Shown here piece by piece: positions 6,295-17,783 of a DNA stretch of 20,000 bases (position 1 is its first letter; each line of letters starts with the position of its first letter). The notes beneath the pieces are model-generated. The model did no database searches and had not been told where the DNA came from. It was given only the letters and a program-made list of their open reading frames with translations. A program made the translations under genes and the position numbers. The stretch comes from an uncultured virus (IMG/VR IMGVR_UViG_3300012956_000002). Taxonomy: Duplodnaviria; Heunggongvirae; Uroviricota; Caudoviricetes. The stretch spans positions 55,930 to 75,929 of the IMG/VR virus record IMGVR_UViG_3300012956_000002. One strand, written 5' to 3'.

Positions 6295-6564
6295 CTATCC
6301 TTTCACTCGGTACTCAATCACATCGATAATTAGCCGCTCAAGGGCGGCATCACTGATTTTGGAATAGTATTCAACGACCTTCGGATAGGTCTTGGCGTGC
6401 CGCCACTGGCTGACAATATCCTCGATCCGTAAGTGGACATAGGCGCGGTTGTCTTCACACAGGTACTTACGGGATTGCTTCAGCCGCTCCCTGTCGGTGT
6501 TGTGGGCAGCGGCCACGACCAGCTTCTGACGCGGCGAGTGGGGTGAGGGTACTTTACGCGCCAC
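6295..6564 (-). CDS. Hypothetical protein
   Basis: C-terminal part of track ORF 6295..6696. GTG 6564 overlaps the end of the upstream gene; the start is uncertain. Confidence 0.6.
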   Translation of the reverse strand: MARKVPSPHSPRQKLVVAAAHNTDRERLKQSRKYLCEDNRAYVHLRIEDIVSQWRHAKTYPKVVEYYSKISDAALERLIIDVIEYRVKG

Positions 6565-7504
6565 GATCTGCCTGCCATTTCCGTACTTCCGGCTCCAACA
6601 GGTCGGGCCGTAGGTCAGACAGCCATTTGCCATCCTGAAACGACCAGCCGGACTCCATCTCCCAGCGCGTATACTGCCGGTACAGGTCGGGCGCAAATTC
6701 CGCCCCGTTCAACAGGTCATTTTCACCGGCCAACACGCACAACGCACAGGACAGCCGTTCATTGCCAAGGGCATAGGCGGGATGCGCCACAAACGAGCCG
6801 AGCAGGTTCTCGACCAGTTGCTGCTTATCCATGCCGCCCTCGCGCTTTTGCTGGATCGCTGCCTGGTACAGCCGGAGCATGTCCGTCCGGTAGCCAAGTT
6901 CCCACCACACCTGTGAGAGCGTCCAGTCATGGATCGGCAGCCAGTTCAGCACCTGCCGCTTCTTGACGTGGCAGCCTTTCCGCTCCGACAGGATGGGTAG
7001 CCGTGCGCGGTTTTTACTCTCCTCGGCACGCATTCCCATAGTCACAAGGATGCGACCGGTCGGGAAATGATTGTTCACCCAGACGTTGATAACAGCACGT
7101 TTCTCATCGCTCGTGCAGTACCGCGCAGCAGAAGAAGGCCAAAAGGGTTTGTCCGTGCCTGCGAGCTTGTGGCGGCGGCGGTCGATCAGGGCAGGCAAAT
7201 CAAGCCCATCGTTCCGGCGTACCACATGGAGCGGCACACCGGCATCGGCGCACTGCTTGGCGACCACACGGGGCGTCACACCCCACTCGGCGCGGCCAAG
7301 GTCGGCATGTACGGCGATGATCTGCCCTTTAAATGCCATCTGGCGGTGCCAGCGGGTTAAGTGCCGGAGCATGGCCTGAGAATCCTTGCCGCCCGATATG
7401 CTGACGACCAAATCCCAGCCATCGCGCAGGAGCGCACCAGGATCAAGGTCAGGGAGCGCTTGGGCACGTTCCCCTTCATCACAAAAGAGGTCTAATTGCT
7501 TCAT
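6554..7504 (-). CDS. PAPS-reductase/DndC-like family protein (PP-loop ATP pyrophosphatase with Cys motifs)
   Basis: PP-loop SISGGKDS, RYCTSDEKR, GMRAEESKNRA, WLPIHDW and HPAY...RLSCALC. Confidence 0.9.
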   Translation of the reverse strand: MKQLDLFCDEGERAQALPDLDPGALLRDGWDLVVSISGGKDSQAMLRHLTRWHRQMAFKGQIIAVHADLGRAEWGVTPRVVAKQCADAGVPLHVVRRNDGLDLPALIDRRRHKLAGTDKPFWPSSAARYCTSDEKRAVINVWVNNHFPTGRILVTMGMRAEESKNRARLPILSERKGCHVKKRQVLNWLPIHDWTLSQVWWELGYRTDMLRLYQAAIQQKREGGMDKQQLVENLLGSFVAHPAYALGNERLSCALCVLAGENDLLNGAEFAPDLYRQYTRWEMESGWSFQDGKWLSDLRPDLLEPEVRKWQADRGA

Positions 7505-7518
7505 CGTATCTATCCTTA

Positions 7519-7549
7519 GAAAAGCAAAAACCGGCTCGTAAGCCGGTTT
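7519..7549 (-). terminator. Intrinsic terminator after the RHH-like gene
   Basis: Stem AAACCGGCT/AGCCGGTTT (7528-7549), followed on the minus strand by TTGCTTTTCT. Confidence 0.7.
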
Positions 7550-7582
7550 CAGTATGTGGTTGGATATGCAGACATGGTTAGG

Positions 7583-7801
7583 TCATGACGGTGTGAGTTT
7601 GATGTCACCATCTGCGATCATCTGGATCAGCACCGAGCGGTTTTCCGCTTTAAACTTCTTCGCCAGCCGGTCCAGGGCGGCCAGACGCTTTGCACGCTCG
7701 TCATCTTTGCCAAGGTACATGGACGCATTTTGGATGCGGTTGGTACGTGGGGGTTTGACCTCATTCGGGTCACGTTCTTTCTTCCATCCCTTTGGGGGCA
7801 T
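7583..7801 (-). CDS. Small ribbon-helix-helix-like transcriptional regulator
   Basis: NASMYL (strand), RAKRLAALDRLAKKF (helix), NRSVLIQMIADG (helix). Start may be 7801 (AGGATACGA RBS like neighbouring genes), 7831 or 7846. Confidence 0.65.
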   Translation of the reverse strand: MPPKGWKKERDPNEVKPPRTNRIQNASMYLGKDDERAKRLAALDRLAKKFKAENRSVLIQMIADGDIKLTPS

Positions 7802-7844
7802 TTCTCGTATCCTAGTCTCTGTCGCTGTCACGGTTATTGCCTCC

Positions 7845-7873
7845 ATATTATCTATTATTTACTGTACAGTCAA
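7845..7873 (-). promoter_or_regulatory. Promoter with an ACTGTACAGT palindrome overlapping -35
   Basis: The minus strand reads TTGACTGTACAGTAAATAATAGATAATAT. It shares TTGACTGTACAGT with the promoters at 15695 and 16131. Confidence 0.65.
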
Positions 7874-8943: not shown

Positions 8944-9383
8944 GATGCTGCCTGCCGTTCCTTCCATTGGCGGTACAGGTATTTACCGGCATCGGTCAGG
9001 ATCATCATCAAAGCCGTTTCGGTGATGTCATGCTTGACTAAGCCGCGTGCCAGCAGGCTCTCAGCAGCATCATTCGGGATTTCCACCCGTCTGATCGCGC
9101 CACGCTGCCCAAGGTGGATGATGACGTTTTCCTCGGTTGAGTTGAGGATCATCGCCATTTTGAAGCTGTCCGCTTCCTCGATATTGACCTTGGTGTCATC
9201 CAGCCGGTACAGGTCAACACGCAGCTTGGTCAGGTGTAAGGGGAAGAAGTGAATCAATCCCCCTTGCAGATTGCCCGTGCTGGGGTTGTTCCAGCCGAAC
9301 TCGATCACCCGCTGCTCGTTGCGGTCGCGCTTGTTGGCCGCGTCAGCAGGGGTATTCAGGTTTACAGTCACTCGCTTACGCAT
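8940..9383 (-). CDS. Hypothetical protein
   Basis: 147 aa; overlaps both neighbours; C-terminus is wHTH-like (LLARGLV...ILTDAG). Confidence 0.7.
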   Translation of the reverse strand: MRKRVTVNLNTPADAANKRDRNEQRVIEFGWNNPSTGNLQGGLIHFFPLHLTKLRVDLYRLDDTKVNIEEADSFKMAMILNSTEENVIIHLGQRGAIRRVEIPNDAAESLLARGLVKHDITETALMMILTDAGKYLYRQWKERQAAS

Positions 9384-11307
9384 TTTTCACTTGCTCCTTC
9401 TGGGCTATGGCCTCACGCAGAATGCGTGCGGCTTCCTTCATGTCCTCAATATCCCCACTCATCGCCGCCTTGGCGTAGTCGCGCTGGGCTTTGACCAATG
9501 GGTCAATGGCCTTAACAGGTTGCTCTATCGTTACAATGTCCACGGTTTTAGTCGGGACGTAAACAGGTTTCTCAATCATGACAATGCGCGTCTGCACACC
9601 GGTCACACGGTAGCCATTGGCCTTGAAAGCGTCCGGCGGCAGCTTCTCACTCGTCCCGCCGATCTCCTCCAACCACTCGCGGAAGGCCTTGGATTGCTTG
9701 CTGTTGGCGAAAAAGCCATGTTCGCTCATGATGGCGACCAGCTTCCCGCCTTCTTTCAGGAACTGCTCATACACATACTGCACATGCTCGATGTCCTGCT
9801 CATCTTCAAACGGCGGGTTCATGACCACGCGGTCGTACATGTCTTCGCGCTTCACGTCATAGTTGAATATCTGGTAGGCCACCAGCTCGTGCCCTTTGAG
9901 TTCCAGAATGTCACGCAGGCGCAGCACAGGCTCAACGCAGTGGACGATGGCGTCAGGGTGTTGGTCTTTGACCGCATCGGCAATGTTGCCCCAACCGGCA
10001 CTTGGCTCCAGCACCCGCATTCCAGTCTGGATGTCGGCCATTGCCAGCATCTGATCCACAATGTTGCTGGGGGTCGGGATGAAGCCTTCGATGTTCGTCC
10101 CAATCAGATCGCGCTTGATGGCCGCGATTTTGTCCCATGTGGTCATTTCCTTGGGCGGGATGTCCTTCAACAGTTCCCGCAGTTCAAAGCGTGCATCACT
10201 GAAGCGGTGCGGTGTGCCAATCCCTGCCTTCAGCAGCCGTTTGAAGTCGTCTTTCGCCGTAACAGCGCTGGGCAGGTAATCCTTAAACAACAGCCATTCC
10301 ACCGTAGCCCGTGTCAGGACACCCTTCAGCACCTCAGGCACTGTGTCCGTATCCCATGCGTCCGCGAGTTTAAGAAGGGCACTTTGCACCCGTTCCAGGC
10401 GGTCGGCATCCTGCGCCATCCCCGCGATGATGTCCATGCGGCGGCGGGTCGGGTTCTGGTTGGCCGTGGCCGGATGGCGTTTCTCATCAATCAGCTTCTG
10501 CATAGCTACAGCCAACTTGCGGAATTTGTCCGCAGGTGAGTCATAGGTGATAGCCTTGATGGCGTTGTCGGCCTTCAGGTTCTCCACCACTTCATCAAAG
10601 GCAGCCCCATCGACCAGCGCCTGAATATCATCCGGCAGCTTTTCCACTGGACACATCCAGAAGCGGTCTTTGCGGTCGTCTTTGTTCCAGCGGAAGCCAA
10701 GGGTATCCTTGTACTGCCGGAAGGTATCCGCATCCTCAAAGCGCGTGTTGTGGATTTCCCAGCCGCCATCGACCTTGACCGCTCGGTAACTGTCGCTGCT
10801 GCCCTTGGCCTTGGCCTCAGACTTGGCCGCTGGCAGACTGTCGCTCGTCTTGTGCGCTTCCTGATAAATCAGGTCAGACAGGGTATAGCTGCCCCCGCCA
10901 GGGAAAACGCTGTGATCCTGCGCCACATGTGCCGACTGATCCCATGTCGAGGTTTTAATCTCAGGCAGGGGCAGCCCGTAGCGGTCGCACACGATCTGCG
11001 CCATGCGGGTATAGAAGGGCACCGTGTACTTGCGATGCTCATGGATATAATCCGCACCCCAATGTACTTTTTCCTTCGTCACCGGATGGATGCCGTAGAT
11101 CGGGGTTGCTAAATCCTGCATCCCGTCAAACGACTGGCCTTCAAAATTCTTGGTGACCTGTTCCACCTCGGCCACGCTCGGCCCGTCCCACCATTCCACA
11201 TCGGTCGATCCCCCGCTGATGTAGACCCGAAACTTGACTTTAGGCCACATCTCAGCGAGTGCCTGACGAATAAACTTATTCGTTTCGGCTTGCGTGATGT
11301 ACGTCAT
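9376..11307 (-). CDS. Polyvalent protein: N-terminal LPD29-like domain plus C-terminal amino (N6-A type) DNA methyltransferase
   Basis: N-terminus IRQAL...PKVKFRV...VEWWDGPS...FEGQSFDGMQD. C-terminus FIPTP, VLEPSAGWG (motif I) and VVMNPPF (motif IV). AAAGGA RBS. Confidence 0.85.
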   Translation of the reverse strand: MTYITQAETNKFIRQALAEMWPKVKFRVYISGGSTDVEWWDGPSVAEVEQVTKNFEGQSFDGMQDLATPIYGIHPVTKEKVHWGADYIHEHRKYTVPFYTRMAQIVCDRYGLPLPEIKTSTWDQSAHVAQDHSVFPGGGSYTLSDLIYQEAHKTSDSLPAAKSEAKAKGSSDSYRAVKVDGGWEIHNTRFEDADTFRQYKDTLGFRWNKDDRKDRFWMCPVEKLPDDIQALVDGAAFDEVVENLKADNAIKAITYDSPADKFRKLAVAMQKLIDEKRHPATANQNPTRRRMDIIAGMAQDADRLERVQSALLKLADAWDTDTVPEVLKGVLTRATVEWLLFKDYLPSAVTAKDDFKRLLKAGIGTPHRFSDARFELRELLKDIPPKEMTTWDKIAAIKRDLIGTNIEGFIPTPSNIVDQMLAMADIQTGMRVLEPSAGWGNIADAVKDQHPDAIVHCVEPVLRLRDILELKGHELVAYQIFNYDVKREDMYDRVVMNPPFEDEQDIEHVQYVYEQFLKEGGKLVAIMSEHGFFANSKQSKAFREWLEEIGGTSEKLPPDAFKANGYRVTGVQTRIVMIEKPVYVPTKTVDIVTIEQPVKAIDPLVKAQRDYAKAAMSGDIEDMKEAARILREAIAQKEQVKNA

Positions 11308-15216: not shown

Positions 15217-15258
15217 AATTTCACCCCTATTCAGTTATTAAATTGCGAAAGTGCGATT

Positions 15259-15325
15259 AGCACATAACAGGGCTTAAATTGCCTTAAGCCCTGTTATGTG
15301 CTGCCAGTGTCAGCACTGGCAGCAC
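15259..15325. repeat. Two overlapping long inverted repeats
   Basis: A 19-bp stem at 15259-15277/15284-15302 and a 12-bp stem at 15298-15309/15314-15325. Confidence 0.85.
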
Positions 15326-15332
15326 GGGCAGC

Positions 15333-15632
15333 CTATTTTCTGGGCAGATACCATGAAATATGAGTCACCTTATCACCCAGCACATAGTCGAGAGTCCAGT
15401 ATTTCGGGGCTGAAGCCTTCAGTATTTGAATGATGAGTCTGATTTCATCATATGTAATAAAGGGCTTATGCCATTCCAGAGTCACCAAAATTCTAGTAAT
15501 GGGCTTAACCTTTGTGCCTGTTTTGGTGATTAGATTCAGGGTGTCAGCAGATTCAAAAATTTTAGCTATGGTCACACCCTTATGAGACTGTAGAGTCTCA
15601 ATTCCTGCCCTTAGTTCCACACCCTTTGTCAT
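15333..15632 (-). CDS. Hypothetical protein, first gene of the leftward operon
   Basis: ATG 15632 with a GAAGGGTG RBS just downstream of the promoter; 99 aa; CG-poor codons. Confidence 0.75.
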   Translation of the reverse strand: MTKGVELRAGIETLQSHKGVTIAKIFESADTLNLITKTGTKVKPITRILVTLEWHKPFITYDEIRLIIQILKASAPKYWTLDYVLGDKVTHISWYLPRK

Positions 15633-15647
15633 GTTGTCACCCTTCAG

Positions 15648-15714
15648 ATAAATTGACTGTACAGTCATTATATAGACTTCAGACTGTACAGTCAATACAT
15701 ATTTTAAAATTGCC
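15648..15714 (-). promoter_or_regulatory. Leftward strong sigma70 promoter with two palindromic operators
   Basis: TTGACT (15695-15690), 17 bp, TATAAT (15672-15667). GACTGTACAGTC at 15682-15693 and TGACTGTACAGTCA at 15654-15667. AT-rich UP-like element. Confidence 0.85.
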
Positions 15715-15720
15715 TATTTT

Positions 15721-16079
15721 TGCTGCCAGTGCTGCCAGTGTCAGCCCATAAAATCACCCTTTGTCATCCTCGAAACAAAGCATAAGAGGATAGAAGGCAG
15801 CATAAGAGGATAGAAGGGCTGACAGCCCACAGAAGGCAGCATAAGCCCTTCTGTGCTGCCAGTGCTGCCAGTGTCAGCCCACAGAAGGCAGCAAAATTTT
15901 TCACCCTGGTATGCACTTTTTTAATTGCCAGTGCTGCCAGTGTCAGCCCATAAAATCACCCTTTGTCATCCTCGAAACAAAGCATAAGAGGATAGAAGGC
16001 AGTGTCAGCCCACAGAAGGCAGCAAAATTTTTCACCCTGGTATGCACTTTTTTAATTGCCAGTGCTGCCAGTGTCAGCC
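15721..16079. repeat. Nested direct-repeat array between the divergent promoters (candidate origin or genome-end region)
   Basis: A ~77-bp block at ~15724 repeats 202 bp later, and a ~78-bp block at ~15871 repeats 131 bp later. GCTGCCAGTGTCAGCC occurs four times. Confidence 0.85.
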
Positions 16080-16111
16080 TAGACTCACCCCTCATAATGA
16101 GGGGTAATTGT

Positions 16112-16178
16112 GGCAATTTTAAAATATCTATTGACTGTACAGTCACATATCCATATAATGACTGTATAGTCAATTTAT
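16112..16178 (+). promoter_or_regulatory. Rightward strong sigma70 promoter with two palindromic operators
   Basis: TTGACT (16131-16136), 17 bp, TATAAT (16154-16159). TGACTGTACAGTCA at 16132-16145 and TGACTGTATAGTCA at 16159-16172. Inverted copy of 15648-15714. Confidence 0.85.
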
Positions 16179-16220
16179 AGGTAAGCACTTGATTAAGTTC
16201 TATGAAGACTAATCACCCTT

Positions 16221-16298
16221 TGTCATCCTCGTGCAAAGCATAAGAGGATGACACTCAGAAGGGCTTAAGCATAAGCCCTTAAGCCCTTCTGAGTGTCA
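16221..16298 (+). repeat. Overlapping hairpins in the 5' leader
   Basis: 10-bp stem TGTCATCCTC/GAGGATGACA (16221-16253) and a perfect 21-bp stem at 16249-16269/16278-16298. Confidence 0.85.
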
Positions 16299-16346
16299 AT
16301 ATAGACACTAGGCAAAATTGCCAGCAAAAACAAAGGATTATGAATC

Positions 16347-17033
16347 ATGACTACAGTAGATAGCATTCCTGTTACAAGCAATATGAAGACTGGTATCAGT
16401 GCCAAGGGCATAGCAGCACAAGCCAAGGCACAACTGGCAGCACAGAAGGCACAATTAGAAGCACAGAAGGCAGAACTCAAACAGACTGAGTCAGCACTGA
16501 AGGCAGAACTCAAACAGAAGAAAGAATCACTGAAGGCTGAGTCAGATGCTGCCAAGGCTGAAGCCCTTGGCAAGAAAGTACAAATTGACTCTTACCTTTG
16601 GCTTGCTAATTGGGCAAAGGGCAGCATAAGGGCAGACAAGGCAGAGAAGGCAGCACTGAAGGCAATTGAGAAGGCAGAAAAGACACTAGAAAAGATAGCA
16701 GCACCTAAAACCCCTGAATATCAGAATGGTAATGAGATTATCAAAACTGACTTGCCACAGACTCATGCTGATGTCTTGAATCTCATTGCTGAAGGCTTGT
16801 CAGCCAGTGTCAGCACTAAGGGTAAGTCAAAGGGTGATGTCATTATTGCCAGTGCAAGAATTGACCTTGCTAACCTGAAGAAAAAACATGCTGAAGCCCT
16901 TCAGTCATTAATCACAAAGGATTATGTCAGCATGACTCAACCTGATTACTACATGCTGACTGACAAAGGGCTGGCAGTGTTTGGGCTGACACTACAACAG
17001 GTCAAAGATAATTACCTTGCATCGCTCGAATAA
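16347..17033 (+). CDS. Lys/Ala-rich coiled-coil protein with a possible C-terminal wHTH
   Basis: 228 aa; AAAGGA RBS; AQKAQL/AELKQ heptads; LQSLITKDYV...YMLTDKG. No CG dinucleotide until the last four codons. Confidence 0.8.
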   Translation: MTTVDSIPVTSNMKTGISAKGIAAQAKAQLAAQKAQLEAQKAELKQTESALKAELKQKKESLKAESDAAKAEALGKKVQIDSYLWLANWAKGSIRADKAEKAALKAIEKAEKTLEKIAAPKTPEYQNGNEIIKTDLPQTHADVLNLIAEGLSASVSTKGKSKGDVIIASARIDLANLKKKHAEALQSLITKDYVSMTQPDYYMLTDKGLAVFGLTLQQVKDNYLASLE

Positions 17034-17048
17034 AGCATAAGACAGCAT

Positions 17049-17149
17049 TAGAAGGGCAGCATAAGCCCTTCTGTGCTGCCTTCAGGGCTGATGTCATCCA
17101 TCAGCCCTGAAGGCAGTATAAGACACTCGAAACAAAGCATAAGAGGATA
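17049..17149 (+). repeat. ~100-bp structured intergenic leader repeat (copy 1)
   Basis: Near-identical to 17370-17469. Contains an 18-bp stem CTGCCTTCAGGGCTGATG/CATCAGCCCTGAAGGCAG and ends in CTCGAAACAAAGCATAAGAGGATA. Confidence 0.85.
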
Positions 17150-17157
17150 GAAAAAAC

Positions 17158-17337
17158 ATGAGACAAGATTCTGTTTGTTGTGTCATAGGTGAGATTTTAT
17201 TCATTATGAAAACTGGAATGTGCCAAGGTTACACACTCACATTCCATTCTGCCAAGGCAGCACTAGCCTATGCCAGACTCTGTAGAATGGATTTAATGAA
17301 GGCTGAAGCCTTTATTGCCTTCTGTGAGGGATCATAG
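17158..17337 (+). CDS. Small Cys-rich hypothetical protein (59 aa, not in the ORF track)
   Basis: MRQDSVCCVIGEILFIMKTGMCQGYTLTFHSAKAALAYARLCRMDLMKAEAFIAFCEGS*. The GAGGA RBS comes from the repeat, and the ORF fills the gap between the two repeat copies. Confidence 0.6.
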   Translation: MRQDSVCCVIGEILFIMKTGMCQGYTLTFHSAKAALAYARLCRMDLMKAEAFIAFCEGS

Positions 17338-17369
17338 GGCAGTGCTGACACTGGCAGCACTGGTAAGCA

Positions 17370-17469
17370 TAGAAGGGCAGTATAAGCCCTTCTGTGCTGC
17401 CTTCAGGGCTGATGTCATCCATCAGCCTAGAAGGCAGTACAGACACTCGAAACAAAGCATAAGAGGATA
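17370..17469 (+). repeat. ~100-bp structured intergenic leader repeat (copy 2)
   Basis: Matches copy 1; its GAGGA serves ATG 17475. Confidence 0.85.
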
Positions 17470-17474
17470 ACAGC

Positions 17475-17783
17475 ATGTTAGAAGTGCATAGGGCAGTGTC
17501 AGCACTGGCAGCAAACAAAGGCTTGCTAGTGCTGACTCATGCCAGTGTCAGAAGTGAATTAGAGCATAGAGTCACCTTACAGCCCATGCCTGGATTGCAA
17601 GGCGGCCTACGAGCGGCAGTGCATGAGGTCTGGCTGGGCATCCTCGATGATGCGGCCAGCCGCGATGGCCTGAGAAGGCAGTACACGAACTATCGCAAGG
17701 ATGGCACGCTCGAAGTGACCTACAGCGCGATCAGCGATGAGAATACCGAAAAACCGACAAACCAGTCGGTTTTTCGTTTCTAA
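17475..17783 (+). CDS. Hypothetical protein spanning the edge of the CG-free island
   Basis: 102 aa; GAGGA RBS. Confidence 0.65.
   Translation: MLEVHRAVSALAANKGLLVLTHASVRSELEHRVTLQPMPGLQGGLRAAVHEVWLGILDDAASRDGLRRQYTNYRKDGTLEVTYSAISDENTEKPTNQSVFRF

Follow-up and report, generated by a model that had tools for sequence, protein, structure and literature searches.

Introduction

T5-like phages are described as resisting restriction–modification (R–M) unless recognition sites lie in the first-step-transfer (FST) region inside their terminal repeats (PMC10644984). For the Autographiviridae, the location of a motif in the first-injected region, and not its number in the genome, is reported to decide restriction (PMC12455610), and according to the survey by Rusinov et al. 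(2018) phages eliminate the short palindromic words of orthodox Type II systems (PMC6286503). We have analysed a 20,000-nt stretch of DNA (the window), namely the final 20 kb of one 75,929-nt contig from an uncultured virus assigned to the Caudoviricetes (IMG/VR record IMGVR_UViG_3300012956_000002, record positions 55,930 to 75,929; hereafter the 76-kb phage). A 2.2-kb segment of this window, termed the island, is almost devoid of the dinucleotide CG and carries a divergent control region together with the first genes of two operons. Coordinates refer to the window unless they are marked as genome or L001.

The island resembles the FST segment described for T5 and BF23, which is short, combines strong host-type promoters with the genes expressed first, and decides sensitivity to R–M by whether it contains sites, those outside it being tolerated (PMC10644984). 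Two traits of the FST type are found here: words that are locally absent yet present elsewhere (CG, GGCC and GATC), and promoters for the host polymerase combined with first genes, namely two promoters that match 11 of 12 consensus positions and head gene blocks. In T5 the segment is a terminal repeat of ~10 kb, shown to enter first, in which particular sites are avoided. The present phage, by contrast, carries an integrase, and its island has been purged of a whole dinucleotide, with recoding of the island proteins. The work on Autographiviridae differs as well, since it deals with single Type I motifs in lytic podophages of known entry order (PMC12455610), whereas neither a phage RNA polymerase gene nor a T7-like organisation was identified in the present phage. 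The elimination of short palindromic Type II words reported by Rusinov et al. is seen here too, but as summarised there it extends over whole genomes, concerns specific sites and is less pronounced in temperate phages (PMC6286503), whereas in this phage it concerns 3% of the genome. Full-text literature searches turned up no phage described as having a locally CG-free region.

Results

A 2.2-kb island purged of CG

The preliminary description of the window had listed, from a scan by eye, seven CG dinucleotides between 15407 and 17602 (at 15771, 15973, 16230, 17023, 17027, 17128 and 17448), and a recount gave identical positions. From its own C and G content, this core of 2196 nt is expected to hold ~106 CG (observed/expected ratio (o/e) 0.066; Poisson P(≤7) = 3e-36). 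In 2000 mononucleotide shuffles of the island, the count averaged 105.9 and never fell below 78. The purge is unique in the genome. All remaining 2196-nt intervals contain 157–247 CG each, the four 500-nt bins with a CG o/e below 0.5 all fall within the island, and when the CG-free gaps of the genome are ranked by length, those in places one to six (155 to 793 nt) and eight lie there as well. With an overall CG o/e of 1.07 the genome is not depleted elsewhere, and the deficit relative to the flanks persists after correction for base composition. Coding and non-coding DNA are both affected, as had been claimed: 1221 nt of the former hold 2 CG and 975 nt of the latter hold 5.

The island has a G+C content of 44% compared with 56.6% for the genome. 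A second low-G+C stretch (genome 54501–55500, 42.6% G+C), which holds small open reading frames (ORFs), contains 59 CG at an o/e of ~1.3. Because this stretch keeps a normal CG content, the loss of CG in the island is not due to composition alone, in accordance with the earlier argument that low G+C was not the cause. The island had also been called sharply bounded, and this is correct for its right side only. The right edge is abrupt, with 18 CG within the following 181 nt and the first GGCC at 17604, whereas the left edge is a leaky zone, in which the margin 15255–15406 adds 3 CG, so that 15255–17602 holds 10 CG versus 115 expected.

15255–17602, no strand: CG-poor zone, with the core 15407–17602 holding 7 CG

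Contigs of an independent assembly connect the island to its flanks. The sole public run found to contain the stretch is an activated-sludge metagenome (run X1), and its Logan contigs, built with a different assembler, cover the stretch with 0 differences. The left edge is spanned by a 12.4-kb contig that reaches from the flank to 15753, the right edge by one of 40.3 kb that begins at 17398 and continues into the flank, while the internal contig breaks coincide with 31-mers that are repeated inside the island. Continuity across both edges, on which the preliminary description had made its case depend, is thus given at the level of contigs rather than reads, and since contigs from an independent assembler bridge both edges an assembly chimera is excluded. 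As run X1 is perhaps the source sample itself, these contigs do not amount to independent biological replication. No RNA run containing the stretch was listed in the public-run search.

The k-mer depth of the flank contigs is 20.2 and 18.7, compared with 41.0 and 43.8 for the two unique island contigs and 30–32 per copy for three short repeated island contigs after division by k-mer multiplicity. The per-copy depth of the island is therefore 30–44 versus 19–20 in the flanks (1.5–2.2x), and it is graded with local G+C. Ordinary G+C bias could produce this extra depth, and equally so could a terminal repeat collapsed in assembly, another carrier of the module or less efficient sequencing of CG-rich DNA that is modified.

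Recoding of the island genes

The purge extends into the proteins encoded by the island, which comprise the following genes and ORFs:

15333–15632, minus strand: 99-aa gene, the first leftward gene, an orphan
16347–17033, plus strand: 228-aa gene, with a predicted long helical (coiled-coil-like) N-terminus and a winged-helix-like C-terminus
17158–17337, plus strand: 59-aa ORF, an orphan without family match
17475–17783, plus strand: 102-aa ORF crossing the right edge, starting at ATG 17475

Arg in the island ORFs is encoded solely by AGR (12 of 12 codons), as the preliminary description had stated, versus 33 of 553 Arg codons in 19 large ORFs elsewhere. The 228-aa protein contains 0.9% Arg and 14% Lys, compared with 5.7% and 4.3% elsewhere, and Lys here replaces Arg. 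If written in the codon usage of the phage, three island proteins would carry ~21, 49 and 13 CG, whereas 2, 2 and 0 are observed. The nearest homologue of the 228-aa protein, P0002 (47% identity by BLASTP), is similarly poor in Arg with 2 in 246 residues (0.8%), and the relatives P0005 and P0006 have ~1 Arg each as read by eye. Judged from these protein sequences, the avoidance of CG could be old; alternatively, a low Arg content could be a property of the family.

Comparison of the repeat copies inside the island points in the same direction as the codon usage. The 25 substitutions between them have created 0 CG, although 14% of all possible substitutions (P = 0.02) and 18% of transitions (P = 0.007) would do so. 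Outside a single conserved motif, no CG has been regained in the core.

A retained TCG motif and further depleted words

All seven CG of the island occur as TCG within six copies of this motif, CTCG-N3/4-AAAGCATAAGA, in which AAAGCATAAGA is invariant. The six copies all lie on the plus strand, and none is found elsewhere in the genome:

15769–15787, plus strand: motif copy 1 (CTCG-N-AAAGCATAAGA), CG at 15771, in the inter-promoter spacer
15971–15989, plus strand: motif copy 2, CG at 15973, in the inter-promoter spacer
16228–16245, plus strand: motif copy 3, CG at 16230, in the rightward leader
17021–17042, plus strand: motif copy 4, CG at 17023 and 17027, overlapping the stop codon of the 228-aa gene
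17126–17144, plus strand: motif copy 5, CG at 17128, providing the GAGGA ribosome-binding site of the 59-aa ORF
17446–17464, plus strand: motif copy 6, CG at 17448, providing the GAGGA ribosome-binding site for ATG 17475

Because the motif is conserved and located at cistron starts, the retained TCG presumably serve a function of the motif itself. A scan of IMG/VR with a 17-nt motif gave a single chance match on an unrelated contig of 30% G+C.

CG is not the only word to be purged. As the recount confirmed, the island contains no GGCC and a single GATC (17330), and both values are genome-wide minima, other intervals of the same length having at least 6 and at least 4, respectively. The same holds for GAGC/GCTC (2, elsewhere at least 8) and GGAG/CTCC (0, elsewhere at least 3). 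In dinucleotide-preserving shuffles AGCT (1 versus 20.1 expected) and TGCA (7 versus 25.2) are likewise low, with 0 of 500 shuffles giving counts as small. Palindromes made of A and T only, CTAG, GTAC and CATG occur about as often as expected. The z-scores of these secondary words are not mutually independent, since the island is rich in repeated words. The dinucleotides CA (o/e 1.51), TG (1.41) and AG (1.40) are raised in the island; AG has an o/e of 0.82 elsewhere, and AT changes from 1.24 elsewhere to 0.93. The rest of the genome avoids one word only, CTAG (~1 per 2.2 kb), which occurs 7 times in the island, so that the island escapes the only word avoidance of the genome.

Divergent promoters with shared operators

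The preliminary description had placed a divergent control region and first genes in the island, and indeed two promoters head the minus- and plus-strand gene blocks. These promoters and the elements around them are the following:

15695–15667, minus strand: leftward promoter TTGACT-17-TATAAT, 11 of 12 sigma-70 consensus positions
16131–16159, plus strand: rightward promoter TTGACT-17-TATAAT, 11 of 12 sigma-70 consensus positions
15653–15695, no strand: operator pair at the leftward promoter, 16-bp palindrome with the consensus TTGACTGTACAGTCAA
16131–16173, no strand: operator pair at the rightward promoter, 16-bp palindrome with the consensus TTGACTGTACAGTCAA
15714–16079, plus strand: inter-promoter spacer, with tandem repeats ~202 nt apart that hold GCTGCCAGTG(CTGCCAGTG)TCAGC words and two motif copies
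16166–16346, plus strand: structured leader, -70.8 kcal/mol, z = -7.3 versus shuffled sequences, including motif copy 3
16249–16298, plus strand: perfect 21-bp hairpin in the rightward leader
15259–15302 and 15300–15323, minus strand: hairpins 3' of the 99-aa gene, a 19-bp stem and a 24-nt palindrome, respectively
17049–17118, plus strand: intergenic two-hairpin unit, with a second copy at 17370–17439 that is 96% identical

The two promoter regions form a 67-nt inverted repeat that is 90% complementary. At each promoter, one putative operator overlaps the -35 hexamer and the other is located just past the -10 hexamer, in the start region. Judged by gene orientation, the leftward promoter opens a mainly minus-strand block that reaches back to ~genome 41 kb and includes all three methylases of the phage, while the rightward promoter faces ParB-like, PAPS-reductase-like, terminase and structural genes.

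This architecture recalls the early region of lambdoid phages, where the divergent promoters PL and PR with their operators are associated with the first genes and the nut hairpins. Common to both are divergent strong promoters, one repressor-type operator, long operons and leader hairpins with a conserved loop, and the sharing of operators extends here to four copies at the two promoters and a fifth copy at a third promoter. In contrast to the lambdoid arrangement, the promoters of the island are near-copies with the same operator pair, and no repressor gene lies between them, the candidate being 8 kb away. Family scans of the island and window proteins gave no matches to the N, Q, CI or Cro families. 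Compared with mosaic modules or morons, the compositional discontinuity with sharp edges fits, whereas independent regulation does not, as the operator is shared.

The word AGCATAA is displayed in the loops of several island hairpins, as read by eye; in this respect, these hairpins seem to us to recall lambdoid antiterminator hairpins, a likeness only. Searches of the island hairpins against Rfam returned only sub-threshold, microRNA-like chance matches. The hairpins at 15259–15323 mark the left limit of the island vocabulary. On the right, a hairpin followed by a T-run was read by eye at ~17750–17779, after the 102-aa ORF; the terminator scan did not list it.

Several repeats are confined to the island or frame it. 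Same-strand GCTGCCAGTG(CTGCCAGTG)TCAGC words are present in eight exact or near-exact copies, all in the island or at its edges. An origin of replication built on these words is unsupported, their spacing of 133, 69 and 131 nt being unlike that of typical iterons, and nothing shows an origin in the island, where the preliminary description had supposed one. The exact 20-nt direct repeat CAGTGTCAGCACTGGCAGCA brackets the island at 15305–15324 and 17494–17513, 2189 nt apart, and a perfect inverted copy of 21 nt is found at 15298–15318 and 17340–17360. These bracketing palindromic words sit just past gene ends, like elements of the REP (repetitive extragenic palindromic) type. Excision of the island as a 2.2-kb circle via the 20-nt repeats was considered and set aside, as both long contigs traverse the repeats unbroken.

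A third promoter in CG-normal DNA

The operator system recurs once more in the window, 8 kb from the island:

7527–7873, minus strand: cassette in CG-normal DNA, consisting of promoter, operator, gene of a small basic protein and terminator
7873–7845, minus strand: third promoter TTGACT-17-TAATAT, its -35 hexamer overlapped by the fifth operator copy (1 mismatch)
7583–7846, minus strand: small basic protein, an 87-aa ORF, likely ~72 aa from the second ATG
7550–7527, minus strand: intrinsic terminator

The surroundings of the cassette are normal in CG (26 CG in 401 nt). Its protein, for which neither a Pfam nor a PDB match was obtained, may be an autoregulated repressor of all three promoters. 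The sequence pattern looks ribbon-helix-helix-like to us, an impression that no family or PDB match supports. Since operator, -35 hexamer and 17-nt spacing are shared with the third promoter, the island module is wired into resident regulation, and its recent import from an unrelated, wholly CG-free phage becomes less likely. Furthermore, the location of the third promoter in CG-normal DNA indicates that operator and promoter need no CG-free surroundings.

Proteins encoded by the island

The 228-aa protein belongs to an unnamed metagenomic family of nine proteins (P0002 and P0005–P0011 besides itself), one homologue having been found by word search and eight clusters by full HMM search. The members share a Lys/Gln/Ala-rich N-terminus with a predicted long helix and a conserved winged-helix-like C-terminal domain; one is encoded on a 56-kb contig (P0005) and one in an Anaerolineae metagenome-assembled genome (MAG). 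The 228-aa protein has no Pfam match, and the ESM Atlas provided nothing beyond winged-helix-like leads for the C-terminus. The model of this part (residues ~130–228, pLDDT 71–90) superimposes on chains of the MarR family, T4 MotA, TubR and ScpB with VIA Z of 7–8.5, a range that the tool calls common, and with rmsd of 2.4–5.5 Å over 60–80 residues. With the 228-aa protein, P0005 and P0010 as queries, tblastn yielded no match in phages or plasmids, and neither did IMG/VR locus scans with the family. Scans of GTDB and JGI with poorly chosen patterns gave false matches only (low-complexity coiled coil; a short peptide).

For the 99-aa protein, only the protein itself was found among the proteins searched, and no usable lead came from the ESM Atlas. 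It is modelled (pLDDT 77) as a generic alpha/beta two-layer sandwich, with a best Foldseek E of 7e-3 and a best VIA Z of 9.0, the latter to designed proteins. The 102-aa ORF has no homologue besides itself. The database gene call covers only its CG-rich last 65 aa, which by our reading start at ATG 17586, and with this start the right edge of the island is within 17 nt of the beginning of a CG-normal gene.

The phage genome and its DNA-modifying genes

Products of the genome include a large terminase of the Terminase_6 type, a portal of the SPP1 type, capsid and tail proteins and a tyrosine integrase, as well as a DnaC/IstB-like ATPase and sugar-modifying enzymes. A MoxR/CobS-type AAA ATPase, a ParB-like protein and a MerR-type protein are encoded in the window. 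The record, rated complete, has direct terminal repeats according to its classification, which here amount to a 123-nt overlap of the contig ends; this overlap is uninformative as to whether the island lies at an end of the virion DNA. Among GenBank phages the nearest large terminase, of a Tunturiibacter phage, is just 34% identical, nucleotide searches (megablast and blastn) of the same phages with the island and with 15 kb of flank gave zero matches, and IMG/VR locus scans with flank proteins found nothing. Two flank ORFs of 394 and 330 aa had no informative PDB match.

Genes related to DNA modification are the following:

genome 50002–51540, minus strand: C5-cytosine methylase, 512 aa, with blocks at residues 2–128 and 448–497
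9376–11307, minus strand: fusion of an LPD29 polyvalent-protein domain with an MTS-type methyltransferase, 643 aa
18179–19770: ParB-like gene overlapping a PAPS-reductase-like gene by 4 nt
6554–7504: second PAPS-reductase-like gene

The C5-cytosine methylase (E = 2.7e-61) is accompanied in the genome by a methylase of the Dam family (D12; E = 1.6e-23). For the catalytic core of the former, M.HhaI is the closest solved relative, and the region of ~260 aa between the two blocks is unmatched and unusually long, which we take to be reminiscent of multispecific phage methylases. The LPD29-MTS fusion matches methyltransferase modules of polyvalent proteins of giant phages and plasmids (PHROGs). The pair of ParB-like and PAPS-reductase-like proteins resembles, in our view, pairs of the IbrB/IbrA type, which presumably have a DNA-related role. 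The methyltransferase fusion and the PAPS-like genes named in the preliminary description are thus present, together with further C5 and Dam-family methylases and in the form of two PAPS-reductase-like genes, respectively. Its TGT-like gene was not recovered: a six-frame search of the genome with PF01702 gave 0 matches at E ≤ 1, while all control genomes (14 of 14) were matched. Similarly, a Pfam scan of 31 window ORFs revealed no DarA-like domain.

Genes of a formyltransferase, a group-1 glycosyltransferase and a DegT-type aminotransferase are found among the head genes (L001:7995–14039). This sugar-modification set could serve the decoration of either virion or DNA.

Discussion

We tentatively favour the interpretation that selection keeps a first-acting module free of targets for restriction and methylation. 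The island would then represent an immediate-early control module, made up of divergent host-type promoters, a shared operator, first genes and structured leaders, and purifying selection on the DNA itself would purge CG and, less strongly, GGCC, GATC and GAGC/GCTC. Such a CG-free module would offer no target to restriction enzymes or cytosine methylases with CG-containing sites, so that its promoters could fire in any host and open the leftward operon with the phage methylases and DNA-modification genes. Selection would be ongoing, restriction or methylation would be its agent, and the module would act or enter before the rest of the genome is exposed, with its genes probably expressed early. 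The preliminary description had proposed two versions of this idea, a restriction-proof first-acting region and a modification-exempt region; both are compatible with the results and neither is demonstrated. Avoidance of R–M sites, which the two have in common, is supported because GGCC, GATC and GAGC/GCTC are purged in addition to CG, in coding and non-coding DNA alike, and because the island holds the strong promoters and the first genes of both operons in a phage that has methylases and PAPS-like genes.

A number of observations weigh against this interpretation. The supposed early or first entry of the island DNA is its weak link; if the whole 76 kb entered together, a site-free stretch of 2 kb would not rescue the phage. 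Terminases of the Terminase_6 type are commonly linked to headful packaging, which leaves no fixed end. The phage also carries an integrase, and the published survey cited above describes site avoidance as weaker in temperate phages (PMC6286503). Moreover, the loss of CG in all contexts exceeds what known sets of restriction sites require, and the methylases of the phage could shield the island like the rest, in which case a local purge would be unexplained. The raw counts of AGCT and TGCA are ordinary among genome intervals and low only relative to the dinucleotide make-up of the island. Finally, the preliminary description had suggested that the island starts anti-defence expression, and searches of Pfam, PHROGs and NCBIfam with the island ORFs matched no family known for anti-restriction or takeover.

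Other explanations have to be considered. It is possible, though we doubt it, that the island is exempt from a modification applied by the phage itself, which would mark CG, GATC, GGCC and further words elsewhere while the module stays unmodified for host RNA polymerase, repressor and regulators; the six retained TCG, as the sole markable sites, could then act as modification-sensitive switches at cistron starts. The gene content agrees with this idea, as the genome carries C5 and Dam-family methylases, the LPD29-MTS fusion, two PAPS-reductase-like proteins and a ParB-like protein, and CG, GATC, GGCC and GAGC/GCTC are the type of target recognized by multispecific phage methylases. Outside the island CG, GGCC and GATC are not avoided, as expected if the DNA there is protected by marking, and poorer sequencing of marked DNA could give the 1.5–2.2x depth of the island; yet the extra depth tracks local G+C and is perhaps ordinary G+C bias, and no gene of the TGT/DpdA family is present. 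In addition, the third promoter with the same operator sits in CG-normal DNA, and coding DNA needs no exemption for the binding of regulators. The more specific proposal that the phage marks every CG, the CG-free module stays readable and the six TCG are switches that sense modification, distinguishing marked, virion-type DNA from unmarked replicated or prophage DNA, appears unlikely to us. We regard as similarly improbable that the module was imported by recombination from a wholly CG-free phage lineage and that its state is a relic of selection in the donor. The entire dinucleotide signature shifts (AG 1.40 versus 0.82, AT 0.93 versus 1.24, CTAG 7 versus 1 per 2.2 kb), G+C is 12 points lower, the sharp right edge is within 17 nt of the start of a CG-rich gene, the genes of the island, compared with the rest of the phage, are orphans and the nearest homologues of the 228-aa protein are equally poor in Arg, all of which import would account for. 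It conflicts with the operator, -35 hexamer and spacing shared with the third promoter, which would demand a CG-free donor of the same immunity type, and with the failure to regain any CG outside the motif or in the 25 substitutions between repeats. A near-identical donor was not found among GenBank phages, PLSDB plasmids, IMG/VR, JGI metagenomes and GTDB genomes, and the question would merely shift to the donor.

Mutational and RNA-level causes have much less to recommend them. Local decay, in which methylated cytosines would be deaminated in a stretch frequently exposed as single strands because of heavy transcription or as a resected terminal repeat, is very improbable. A C5-methylase is present, CA (1.51) and TG (1.41) are raised, the G+C deficit would fit ~190 changes of CG to TG or CA, and the 1.5–2.2x depth would fit a collapsed terminal repeat; still, the excess of CA and TG (~80) explains fewer than half of the CG that were lost, no depletion is seen in the remainder of the genome (o/e 1.07) and the depth is graded with G+C, with no clean twofold step. 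The ORFs have not been interrupted, and the recoding of Arg to AGR or its replacement by Lys calls for selection rather than simple C-to-T decay. We likewise give little credence to the view that early transcripts shun CpG, read by a host or phage ribonuclease or an RNA sensor. The zone does approximate the two first transcription units between the outermost hairpins, and the CG that remain belong to a motif found at cistron starts and in one orientation (plus strand in 6 of 6 copies). A cause at the level of mRNA is nevertheless unlikely because the rightward ORF and its transcript continue into 18 CG before the hairpin at ~17750, and because the presumably untranscribed inter-promoter spacer, where no strong promoter was found, is equally CG-free; the palindromic DNA words GGCC and GATC are purged as well. 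The jumps in composition at both edges and the roughly twofold depth of the island contigs relative to the flanks might raise the suspicion of a chimera or another assembly artefact. This is extremely unlikely, given the bridging contigs with 0 differences, the coincidence of internal breaks with exact internal repeats, and an ORF, an operator system and repeat words that cross or link the edges.

Avoidance of sites in first-acting phage DNA is known for individual sites; in the present phage a whole dinucleotide has been removed from a 2.2-kb control module. Since CG is not avoided in other parts of the genome, some agent within infected cells would appear to read bare CG or very many CG-containing sites, which implies that only the 2.2-kb module is exposed to the CG-reading agent. 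The six retained CG sites point to a specific motif whose function is open to probing. If selection on first-acting DNA is indeed the cause, a few synonymous CG restored to the island should alter host range or expression.

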